Below are positions 443 to 61,977 of a stretch of DNA of 64,000 nucleotides, in pieces (position 1 is the stretch's first letter; each line of letters begins with the position of its first letter). The stretch comes from Octopus vulgaris. Taxonomy: Eukaryota. The DNA lies in the NCBI GenBank assembly GCA_951406725.2, contig OX597838.1, positions 6,262,001 through 6,326,000 on the forward strand. The letters run 5' to 3'. A model generated the notes under the pieces. That model was not told where the DNA came from, ran no database searches, and saw nothing but the letters and a program-made list of their open reading frames with translations. The translations under genes and the position numbers were made by a program.

Positions 443-939
443 TTGAGGGTACTACTATTCGTAGATACCACACGCTAAGAGGGACCAATGCGGTCAAAAC
501 TACTAAAAGTAAACAAAATTTTACCGAATGCAAAACTTCAAAGCACATCATTTTAAAAAAAGAATTCAGTTACATATCACATGTGATTTCGCATTTAATG
601 CAGAATATGCATTTCATGTTCATCAGTGCAACAAACTCAAGAAATATAAGAAAAATCATAACATTACAAGCTCGATAGCCAACCGTAGAATTCGTCGTAG
701 AAAGTACGAATGTTTATCTTTACATATCTATGAAAATGGCGGGCTTATTCGCAATGCATTTCGATAACAAATTGCCTACTCGGAATAAAATTCAGTATTG
801 AACTATTCCGGTGAAAAATATAACTTAACAATTGAGGATAAAATCTTTAAAAGAAATTATCAGTAGTCAGCGTGAAAAACCTCGTAAAAGAAAAAATCCG
901 TAAATTCTTCCTCTTTGAAAATATTCATATATTTCTTTT

Positions 940-13232: not shown

Positions 13233-13233
<1 letters not shown>

Positions 13234-13448
13234 GGAGTAAACACATAAATGTGAAACAAGGTGGAAAAAAGAGTACTCAAATACCAGTGGTAGAGTAATA
13301 TGCTTTATGCGCAGAAATTCAACAAAATCTTTTCGAGTTTCTCGTTGCCGTTCATCAGACAGTTTTTGCTAGCAAAACTGTCTGATGAACGGCAACGAGA
13401 AACTCAGAGTAACAGATTTTGTTGAATTTTCTGCTGCTTAAAATAAAG
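13233..13448. mobile_element. Fold-back remnant of a probable Penelope-like element
   Basis: Imperfect palindrome 13311-13434 centred on GCTAGC (13368-13373); contains a hammerhead motif; flanked by (TA)n on both sides. Confidence 0.7.
13378..13415 (+). ncRNA. Minimal type I hammerhead ribozyme motif
   Basis: CTGT-CTGATGA-A CG GCAA CG A-GAAA-CTCAGAG-TA-ACAG: stem I CTGT/ACAG, very short stem II with a GNRA loop, near-palindromic stem III. The minus-strand copy in the left arm lacks the cleavage segment. Confidence 0.65.
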
Positions 13449-13482
<34 letters not shown>

Positions 13483-29428: not shown

Positions 29429-31446
29429 ACATGATGAATGCAATTATAGAAATGTTTACCTTTTTTGTTCTACAAATTATGAAAATAATGCTTTATATAA
29501 TGAGTTATATAATAATCTATTAATTATATTGTGTAGTTTATGCATCTCAGTATCATATTATATCATGACATATCCTCATGTATTATTTAATGCCATTCAC
29601 TACAGCTTTTATCTTTGTATATAGGCTCAAGATTCGGAGTTATATATTGCTAAAGGATATAAGCATCGGCTACAAATCCGAAACAAAAATGTGTATTCTT
29701 CAGAAGTGATATGAATTTTTCATCAATAATGAACACTTTTGAACCACAAAGGAAGAAACACTGTGTATTACTTATTAACAGACTGAGAAGCTTTTACCTC
29801 CGACTCTATTATTCCTGAACTGCGACATAAAATATAAACATATATTTCTCTAATTATTTTGGCCGTGATCCGAACTGCTAATCCGATTCGCTACTCACCC
29901 TTTTATTACGTGAATATATTTTGTCAAAGGATTGTACAGCATGTTACTATACAAGAGAAAAGAAGGATTTCAATAACAGACCCTCAAATCAGAAAATCTG
30001 ATGCATCGACAGCAATAAATTCCAACGATGCTTGAACGTTTTCGTTTCATTACTTTTTCTATTGAAAATATTTACTTCAAGGGGATAAATCCCTGTGCAA
30101 GATGATTTATTTTCGCTTTATTTATTTGATATTTGATATTTGGTATGGCAATATTTTCCAGGGCCACATAAGGACACTAGCTTTGGAAGTTTTGATTCTA
30201 TAGAGGATATTAAATGTGGAAGAATTGCCAAACAGTTGTCGAGTGTCATATTGAATATCAATCGGTTTTTGTTTAGGATTTCTCATATTATTTCAGTACA
30301 TAATTGGAAAGGTGGATCGCTGTTAGCCATAGGAGATTGAACAGTAACATTTTTATATTTAGAATAGACTTGGCAAGGAAACAATTTTGATTGAAGTCGA
30401 AACCTCACTTTTCACGTTATATTATCGTCATATTGAACGATTTTTGTCTCCTCGCATGGAGAGCGGCATAACATTTGTGATGAAAAGACTCATAACTCGA
30501 ATATTGGATTGAAGTTCGATTCCAAACAAGATTTTTACGAAATTCGCTAATTCCAATAATAGTGCATACATGAGCACAACAAATTCCAATAATTCAAGCC
30601 TCAAACCTATATATTTAGTCAGAAAGGAATTGAAAAAGACAATAGAGGATAGTTTGTCATTCCACTGCTTGGAATATGTGCTATATAATTATCTATCTTC
30701 TATAAGTATTTGTTTACTCTCAGCTTGCCGTTTGAGCCCTGTTTATTGATATGCGTTCTAGCCGTGGCCATCCCATTTTACTTCCTTTTTCATAGGCTGA
30801 TGTTGCATGATAATAGCGACTGTAGAATATTATAGAATGGGTAAAATATCGCATCATATTGCCTGAAGGTTATTTTATTTATCCACATTTTATACTACCG
30901 GCACACGTGTTATGCATTTTCCTAATTCTATCCCAACGTAAATTTATTGATCGAGATGTTATTGCTTTATCTTTTTAAAAATGGATTGTCGTATATTCGA
31001 ATGTTCTCCTTCGTTCACGTTGTTTAATTCACAACTCACGAAAGCCTTTTATGGAAAATTTAGAAACAAACAAGTAGAACTCTTGTCAGTTGTAAAAGTT
31101 CAATTTCTGAGATGTATTTACTTACAAAGTCATCCCAGCTTTCAGTTTTAATTTTTTTTTTCGTTTTTTAGAAGTCTGTGAAAGTATTGTATTATGTTGT
31201 GTGGAGTAACAGGGAAATTTGGCTACACCTTTCACATTTTAATAGGCTGTGTGACCCTGTTGAAGGTAACACTTCGGCAACGAGGTACCGCACCTTTACA
31301 ACGCTTAATGACAGGAATACATTAAGTATACCGTATGATAGATATAATATGTTTATATTTGATACAAAATGCTTATCTCGAAATCTTTCTCAAATTATAT
31401 TTATCTGACAATCATTCTAAAGTTTCATAGCAGAAAATATATTTTC

Positions 31447-31861
31447 TATTTCCTTACTACCCACAAGAGGCTAAACACAGAGAGGAAAAACAAGGACAGA
31501 TAAACGGATTAAGTCTATTATATCGACCCCAGTGCGTAACTGGTACTTAATTTATCGACCCAGAAAGGATGAAAGGCAAAGTCGACCTCGACGGAATTTG
31601 AACTCAGAACGTAACGGCAGACGAAATACCTATTTCTTTATTACCCACAAGGGGCTAAACACAGAGGCAACAAATTAGGACAGACATAGGTATTAAGTCG
31701 ATTACATCGACCCCAGTTCGTAACTGGTACTTAATTTATCGACCCCGAAAGGATCAAAGGCAAAGTCGACCTCGGCGGAATTTGAACTCACAACGTAACG
31801 GCAGACGAAATACCGCTAAGCATTTCGCCCGGCGTGCTAACGTTTCTGCCAGCTCGCCGCC
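31447..31861 (-). mobile_element. SINE family A, dimeric body, 22-bp TSD
   Basis: Minus-strand head GGCGGCGAGCTGGCAGAAACGTTAGC, B-box GAGTTCAAATTCC, central GCCTTT(C/G)ATCCTTTCGGGGTCGATAAATTAAGTACCAG; two units of about 185 bp; TCATAGCAGAAAATATATTTTC duplicated at 31425-31446 and 31862-31883. Confidence 0.92.
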
Positions 31862-51146: not shown

Positions 51147-51179
<33 letters not shown>

Positions 51180-51181
<2 letters not shown>

Positions 51182-51430
51182 TGATGATCTGTAGCTAAAT
51201 TCTGTTTTTAAATGACTTGCTTCGAGACTTGCATTCGGTATGATATGTTTATTTGGGTAGTTTTGACTTTAAGAGTCCCTCGTAGCGTGCGGCATTTATG
51301 TGTAATAATGCCCTCTATATAATATAAATAAATATATTCAAGTGAAAAAATTTACAGATGTTTTCTCTTATGAGGTTTTTCACGCTAACTACTTGATAAT
51401 TTCTTATGACGATTTTATCCTATTTTTAAA
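51180..51430 (-). mobile_element. Unclassified structured element between (TA)n tracts (family of 437-945)
   Basis: Reverse-complement homology to 440-590 and 830-935. Confidence 0.6.
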
Positions 51431-51441
51431 TTATATACATA

Positions 51442-51506
<65 letters not shown>

Positions 51507-52144
51507 GTATGAGTGTGTAAATGTATATGCGTTCGCTTTCAATACCACTGCATATCTACCGAAGCAAACAACACTTTCTATAATCTATGCGCAGACCTAA
51601 AGGTTTGAGTATCCCGGTGTGTTTATGTGCGAGTGTAACTATATGTGTGTGCATGCGTGAACGCGTGTTCTGTTGCTGAACAACACCTTAATATCAAAAT
51701 CGTAGTGGGTTTTGCGATTAAGCCAGATGGTGCATTTCACAGCTGTGGTCATTCACATAAATGAATTAACCTGTCACATTAAATGCCAGCCGGGAATAAT
51801 TTCTATGAAACCGGGTATGTAATAATTTTATGCACATAAAGCAACGGCCAAAGGACCTTGCTTGATTTACAAACAATAATTCAAATTGCTCTATTCTCAT
51901 ATGTAACGTTCCGTTGCTGCAATGTGTTTATCCTTTAAATATCATACTGGTCATTCTGTTCCCGACTGATTAGGTAATTGAAATATTCTGATACTTGAAG
52001 CTGGATGGTTTCAATTAGAGCTAACTTTCCAAATTATCTCATACACTCATTTCCCGGCAACTCTTTGCGGACTTTAATAACTCTAAAGTTCAGATATATT
52101 ATTGAACAGCCAATGTTTAACTATCTAGTGAACATATGGATATG

Positions 52145-53915: not shown

Positions 53916-53920
<5 letters not shown>

Positions 53921-54328
53921 CAACAATTGAGGGTAAAATTAATTAATTATTAATCAATTTCACCAAGTGTTCAGTATGCAAAGGGACCATTTAAGGCGAA
54001 TTCAAATTATTACATTATATAAAAGGGCTTAGTAAAATAAATTACTTTGCCGCATACTGAACTCATTAGAAATAGCAGCTAAAAAACTTTTTTAAAGCTA
54101 TTTCTAATACTTAAAGAAAATCTCTCTCATATATAGTGTTTGCTTAATTCAACTCACAAACTTTTGTGAGTTGAATTAAGCAAACACTATATATAATTAA
54201 GCAAACACTATATATGAGAGAGATTTTCTTTAAGTATTAGAAATAGCTTTAAAAAAGTTTTTTAGCTGCTATTTCTAATGAGTTCAGTATGCGGCAAAGT
54301 AATTTATTTTACTAAGCCCTTTTATATA

Positions 54329-54333
<5 letters not shown>
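53916..54333. mobile_element. Fold-back element between (TA)n tracts with arms of about 150 bp
   Basis: 54011-54160 is the reverse complement of 54163-54333 apart from a 21-nt tandem duplication (54174-54194/54195-54215); 2-nt loop. Confidence 0.8.
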
Positions 54334-61378: not shown

Positions 61379-61977
61379 TATTTTTTATTGCCCACAGGGG
61401 GCTAAACATAGAGAGGATAAGCAAGGACAGAGACAAAGGGAAGTCGATTACATCGACGCCAGTGCGTAACTGGTACTAATTTAATCGACCCCGAAAGGAT
61501 GAAAGGCAAAATCAACCTCGGCGGAATTTGAACTCAAAACGTAACGGCAGATGAAATACCTATTTCTTTACTACCCACAAAGGGCTAAACACACAGGGGA
61601 GGAACAAGGACAGACAAACGGATCAAGTCGATTACATCAACCCCAGTGCGTGACTGGTACTTAATTTAATCGACCCCGAAAGGATGAAAGGCAAAATCAA
61701 ACTCGGCGGAATTTGAACTAAGAACGTAACGGCAGATGAAATACCTATTTCTTTATTACCCACAAAGGGCTAAACACAGAGGGGAGAAACAAGGACAGAC
61801 AAACGGATCAAATCGATTACATCGACCCCAGTGCGTGACTGGTACTTAATTTATCGACCCCGGAAGGATGAAAAGCAAAGTCGACCTCGGCGGAACTTGA
61901 ACTCAGAACGTAGCGGCAGACGAAACTCCGCTAAGCATTTCGCCCGGTGTGCTAACGTTTCTGCCTGTTCAGCGCCG
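61379..61977 (-). mobile_element. SINE family A, trimeric body
   Basis: Three tandem units of about 182 bp starting near 61379, 61561 and 61746, plus a single head. Confidence 0.92.

Follow-up and report, generated by a model that had tools for sequence, protein, structure and literature searches.

The helices that an earlier note had read, on the minus strand of a 64,000-nt stretch of Octopus vulgaris DNA (assembly GCA_951406725.2, contig OX597838.1, positions 6,262,001 to 6,326,000; hereafter the window), as a candidate variant ribozyme are, to judge from the sequence, the reverse complement of a conserved multi-helix structure lying in the hammerhead-bearing strand of non-coding tandem retroelements. 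These elements fit non-LTR retrozymes and are likely non-autonomous Penelope-like elements (PLEs), and their conserved fold probably acts as a docking and initiation platform for a borrowed PLE reverse transcriptase-endonuclease. Both the element class and its hammerhead are already known, and the claim of a variant ribozyme does not hold; the other possibility raised in the same note, an undescribed cis-acting RNA of a retroelement whose structure is selected for, finds support on the opposite strand, where it can be tied to two insertion ends.

The motif is present in thousands of tandem units of 0.5–0.6 kb, belonging to at least nine sequence families and inserted in (TA)n; the host genome measures 2.8 Gb and is rich in TA repeats. 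First-look candidates numbered 2381 for the family of the copy at 51240 (family A) and 1825 for that of the copy at 437 (family B), and 40 from each list were scored. The family of the element at 53916 (family C) was counted by pattern search, where an 18-mer taken from it gave 1394 exact matches vs 0 for the reversed control, and the end motif common to the elements, adjoining TATATAA, occurs 3458 times vs 99 for the reversed pattern. All the strings quoted in the earlier note are present in the window and, with such high-copy families and reversed controls of 0 and 99, lie far above chance. Further families were drawn from 70 loci among the first 100 places listed for the end motif plus TATATAA, which gave families D, E, G, H and K with subfamilies, and also some unrelated matches. 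The features of the window are the following.

51178..51431, plus strand: family A retrozyme copy that lacks its 5' part up to 12 nt ahead of the cleavage site of the hammerhead, with its 3' end fixed against (TA)n
51147-51178 and 51432-51510: TA tracts flanking the family A copy
51178..51195, plus strand: 3' half of a type I hammerhead (stem III and 3' strand of stem I), assigned by comparison with sister copies; expected cleavage between 51189 and 51190
51257..51277, plus strand: outer three-way junction, 5' strand of P0 (51257-51260) and hairpin Pa (51265-51277)
51283..51289, plus strand: 5' strand of P1 (partner 51381-51387)
51291..51322, plus strand: hairpin P2 (51291-51312), CU and TA-rich linker, forming insertion end site 2
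51365..51374, plus strand: small hairpin P3 of the inner junction, weakly supported (pairing probability 0-0.99 depending on the family)
51381..51392, plus strand: 3' strand of P1 (51381-51387), stacked directly on the 3' strand of P0 (51389-51392)
51395..51432, plus strand: terminal hairpin H1 (51395-51399 with 51415-51419), CU and linker, forming insertion end site 1
443..932, minus strand: family B copy, one permuted monomer that starts and stops at site 2, with site 1 inside at about 819
569..632, minus strand: complete canonical type I hammerhead (CUGAUGA 626-620, GAAA 590-587; stem III is palindromic); cleavage is expected between 575 and 574; in family B stem II opens with an A-C pair
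53916..54333, both strands: family C insertion of the inverted type, whose minus-sense arm ends at site 1 at 53916 and whose plus-sense arm ends at site 2 near 54333, both arms being truncated before the hammerhead

Units measure about 495 bp in family A, about 497 bp in B, 545–563 bp in C and about 578 bp in E, with a GC content of about 0.3, and no PLE protein matches were found inside them. Copies range from truncated monomers and partial tandems to arrays of as many as 13 units; tandem units were found in families A, B, C, D, E and G, and none were found for H and K. One end of each copy is fixed against (TA)n and the opposite end is variable, often followed by an inverted arm, so that 5' truncations, partial tandems and inverted arms make up 59 inverted and 65 direct clusters (116 loci). 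In target-primed retroposition the fixed end is the 3' end of the retroposed RNA, and the RNA is therefore the strand opposite to the one first read. The normal unit of family B joins 932 to 443; contigs of four sequencing runs that we guess to be RNA span the unit and contain this join, and tandem DNA gives the same join. A further family with a 363-bp tandem unit (family F; L122, L125, L127) fits the end pattern, with its own two-end look, and was excluded as a separate system, its hammerhead-like core (CCGATGA...GAAA) lying on the same strand without the module. The window also holds two related tandem repeats of 184–185 bp (31446-31814 and 61379-61925).

By its sequence, a canonical type I hammerhead is present in every family that was followed far enough, on the strand opposite to that of the earlier note, which had overlooked the complete window example at 632-569 on the minus strand. 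A strict search of families A and B gave 55 matches in 41 of 55 loci, and the hammerhead was also found in families C, D, E, H, G and K, with a long stem II (25–60 nt) and a stem III that is palindromic, near-palindromic or closed by a 1–2-nt loop in all families looked at. In the family A copy of the window the CUGANGA/GAAA half has been lost, and sister copies retain it. The hammerhead precedes the end motif on its own strand (79 hammerheads in 62 of 242 loci); those of the opposite class numbered six in the 242 loci, three of them in inverted arms and three without assignment. The insertion sites lie 219–294 nt after the hammerhead GAAA, the fixed end at about 220–290 nt. Rfam returned no match in the window at gathering score; at E ≤ 1 in four loci it returned simple-repeat miRNA matches and one U6, and its hammerhead models did not match. 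A full-length U6 copy (106.8 bits; L255:1022-1127) is inserted in H1 of a family G unit.

The proposal of a variant ribozyme with hammerhead topology on the strand first read would make this strand an antisense cutter, as in circular RNAs of two polarities, and in its favor the three stems follow the type III order and are linked by short purine-rich joints in families A and B. Among the family A loci, however, CUGANGA is absent between stems I and II in 29/29 and GAAA is absent between stems II and III in 29/29, the latter position reading AAAA in 26 and ATAA in 3; GAAA is absent in families C and E as well. The joints vary freely between families both in length (0–9 nt) and in sequence. The CT-ACGA string taken as the core proves private to the window copy, CTACGAG being found in one family A locus of 29 (the window itself) and CTAGGAG in 23. 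In the 437-945 copy the halves are permuted, with CACGCT (471-476) before AGCGTG (869-874); this copy represents a monomer opened at a TA site within the unit, and the type III order therefore exists only across units. With no Rfam match for the candidate in the window, a canonical hammerhead on the other strand and wobble pairs that favor that strand (see below), the variant ribozyme is rejected on these sequence data, and an antisense cutter appears highly improbable.

Read on the hammerhead strand, the fold comprises an outer junction of P0, Pa and P1, an inner loop with P2, an A/U-rich stretch and the small P3, and then the terminal hairpin H1; the 3' strand of this hairpin corresponds to the end motif and, in reverse complement, to the AGGRTAAAAT string seen upstream of the helices in the earlier note. 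Across 13 family representatives, 226 of the 247 helix cells of P0, P1, P2 and H1 are paired on this strand (210 Watson-Crick, 16 G-U, 7 A-C and 14 other), vs a mean of 202 (sd 2.8) in a shuffle control with 0/20000 as high, in which the representatives are treated as unrelated and the helix registers are those picked by the analyst by rule; two registers were picked wrongly by the automatic procedure (P0 of E_L181 and P1 of G), and both lower the paired count. Two or more Watson-Crick types are seen in 12 of the 19 helix columns and, within P1, at five of the seven positions, together with a sixth (position 2: A-U, G-U, G-C), so that the compensatory changes noticed by eye in three copies are real. 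Family G, fetched later and outside the data on which the model was set, has Watson-Crick majority pairs at 19/20 positions (27 loci), and family K, also fetched later, has 19 plus one fixed G-U (26/30 loci), making 20/20 majority pairs; a third P0 variant is present in this later check. Within families A and B the paired share of the 405 cells is 94.1% (33–49% in slid controls; 0/500 shuffles), and just 4/35 pairs change on both sides. P0 has a low predicted probability in family C, and plain MAFFT misaligns P0/Pa between family groups. A covariance model trained on A and B alone finds the other families weakly (E 0.006–0.5), with 14 of 18 weak matches lying, by position, on the right strand of a family member.

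The structural part of the original claim thus stands, since the helices are real and covary, and its strand does not, the fold being better supported on the plus strand of the window for 51256-51431. An alternative is that the helices act in the first-strand cDNA, for example in second-strand priming or in endonuclease resolution; the majority of the pairs, being Watson-Crick, can form in RNA and cDNA alike, and for the window copy the folding z-score is better on the strand first read (−1.85) than on the hammerhead strand (−0.93). Over seven references the z-score favors the hammerhead strand in four, and predicted folding energy by itself does not decide between the strands. Against an action in the cDNA, the wobbles fixed within families (D P1.2, C/E H1.4, E P1.4 and K P1.5) take the form G-U in the RNA and A-C in the cDNA, and over 25 copies the non-Watson-Crick pairs on the hammerhead strand are G-U in 28 cases vs A-C in 13, which makes this alternative improbable. 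Pairs counted within families (72 copies; A-C 54 and G-T 31 on the strand first read) mix in neutral decay, and the strand call therefore rests on the family-level pairs.

Insertions end at two sites, 90–115 nt apart (about 100 nt). Of 59 inverted clusters 50 combine site 1 with site 2, two have two site-1 ends and seven are of other kinds, and the direct clusters end at site 1 in 49 of 65 cases, at site 2 in eight and elsewhere in eight; these counts refer to 116 loci left after removal of 14 overlapping ones from 130, chosen via site-1-containing queries, with site-2 windows 8–42 nt wide and two clusters that merge neighbors. Both sites follow a hairpin, P2 or H1, closed by CC-like pairs and followed by CU, and the distance from this hairpin-CU to the first (TA)5, searched up to 22 nt, is 7–14 nt in 120/141 site-1 ends and in 64/94 site-2 ends. 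A tail of 90–115 nt is present on one side only in 50/59 inverted clusters. Just downstream of site 1 a CCGG(A)-containing motif is found (window 800-818; L130, L004, L228; families A, B, D and the 5' region of a Hydra-type element), which we take to resemble an ETS site and possibly to be an internal promoter.

The accessible parts of an in vitro study of a PLE protein offer a close parallel to these ends: reverse transcription starts at two sites inside the RNA, both downstream of the hammerhead and sharing no homology with the cut DNA, and the genomic tail corresponds to the RNA stretch between the two starts; the purified protein, predicted to be a dimer, cuts both strands of AT-rich DNA and needs the RNA downstream of the hammerhead, not hammerhead cleavage (PMC11167929). 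Tandem and inverted arms, a tail and a (TA)n bias are described for PLE insertions in the part of PMC8557442 that could be consulted. Because these two starts match the two insertion ends, the conserved fold is probably the docking and initiation platform of the borrowed enzyme. Tandem units would be transcribed, and hammerheads acting in pairs, given their palindromic stem III, would release monomers and perhaps circularize them. The two hairpin-CU-linker modules would be kept in a constant spatial arrangement by the P0/Pa/P1 junction. Once the PLE protein had cut (TA)n, one DNA strand would serve as primer for cDNA synthesis at site 1 and the other as primer at site 2. Such two-site priming would give rise to copies that are truncated, form partial tandems or are inverted head to head, with a tail of 100 nt on one side.

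The fold may instead serve another step on the hammerhead strand (stability or export of monomers or circles, or control of the hammerhead), the ends being set by TA microhomology alone. Both sites are indeed A/U-rich and abut (TA)n, and retrozyme circles are described as highly self-paired in the accessible text of PMC7229834; site 2 is TA-rich in most families, and homology priming could therefore contribute. However, the ends keep a constant spacing from two analogous hairpin-CU motifs despite the A/U-rich loop of 30–55 nt that follows P2, families D and E have no clean TATA at site 2 and yet end there, and the two invariant-looking motifs are those adjoining the ends, so that this explanation seems unlikely. 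Within the platform model, a more specific and tentative version can be envisaged, in which two hairpin-CU-linker-UA start modules, kept about 100 nt apart by the covarying three-way junction, form a bipartite platform; each module may serve one of the two subunits of a PLE RT-endonuclease dimer, which would allow priming on both of the cut DNA strands. If true, the PLE class, sister to telomerase, would have its first RT-binding RNA defined by covariation, and the tail and the inverted insertions would have a structural explanation.

As to the source of the enzyme, two young autonomous PLEs were found, a Neptune-type one of 1008 aa and a Hydra-type one of 727 aa, the clade names resting on motifs described in the consulted part of PMC8557442; Pfam has no family for either protein. 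Both have a hammerhead upstream of the ORF, and the sequence and fold after it are other than those of the module, so that an autonomous element with this module was not found among the two; no ORF joined to the module was found in the flanks of families H, E, G and K. Other Hydra-like PLE lineages exist in the genome. The Neptune-type element (L161-L167) has a CA-rich 3' UTR and, in most copies, a CCGACGA hammerhead core, and the Hydra-type frame has about 100 equal-scoring copies among the matches listed. An inverted pair from the hammerhead region of the very young Hydra-type PLE occurs at window 13233-13453 (also in L228, L236, L241, L246 and L250), its arms ending about 65 nt apart, with the same two-end logic and a different module. 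At L011:1180-2110 a family A copy adjoins a Neptune-type endonuclease fragment with no TA tract between them, by insertion or template switch. Two other repeats were noted: a short element beside (TA)n with a core that looks tRNA-like by eye and palindromic ends like the site-1 motif (L089:1877-2132, L090:1222-1380), and an abundant repeat (2753 candidates) with a hairpin and TATA at its end, lying immediately upstream of a family H copy (L128:1860-2117).

At least nine diverged non-coding families with the same helices beside the same two ends would offer a ready and mutable model of the signal by which the RTs of PLEs, the closest relatives of telomerase, recognize their RNA and choose internal starts, and the shared fold and ends support the view of animal retrozymes as PLE passengers. 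Telomerase RNA has a three-way junction (CR4/5) close to its template region and is copied by a TERT-related RT; the likeness to the fold described here is an analogy only. The in vitro PLE study maps two starts and, in its accessible text, no conserved fold (PMC11167929), and in the main texts of the openly accessible literature neither this fold nor a tail of 100 nt was found described.

When compared with known systems, on the basis of the accessible text of the sources cited, the elements share with animal non-LTR retrozymes the non-coding, low-GC tandem units with one type I hammerhead per unit, the range from monomers to long arrays and the co-occurrence with PLEs (PMC7229834; bioRxiv 10.64898/2026.07.22.740005), and animal retrozymes have been argued to be non-autonomous PLE derivatives (10.64898/2026.07.22.740005). 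In contrast, the units are longer (495–580 bp vs the published 170–400 nt), and the accessible text of these reports describes neither insertion strictly into (TA)n nor two fixed ends, nor a structure that covaries and is shared by families (PMC7229834; 10.64898/2026.07.22.740005). The neighboring hammerhead, and not the motif first noted, matches type I hammerheads with palindromic helix III in its CUGANGA/GAAA core, NUH site and expected action as a dimer (PMC4209133), its stem II of 25–60 nt being missed by the Rfam models. With the pLTR and tail of EN+ PLEs the insertions share 5' truncation, partial tandems, inverted arms, a one-end extension and a hammerhead upstream of the ends (PMC8557442; PMC11167929), as well as the (TA)n bias known from Hydra and Naiad (PMC8557442), whereas they have no ORF and a tail of about 90–115 nt, approximately three times the published 30–40 bp. 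Finally, the Anolis PLE starts in an AC-rich stem-loop for which the accessible text gives no covariation model (PMC11167929), unlike the hairpin-CU modules and the covarying junction of the octopus elements.
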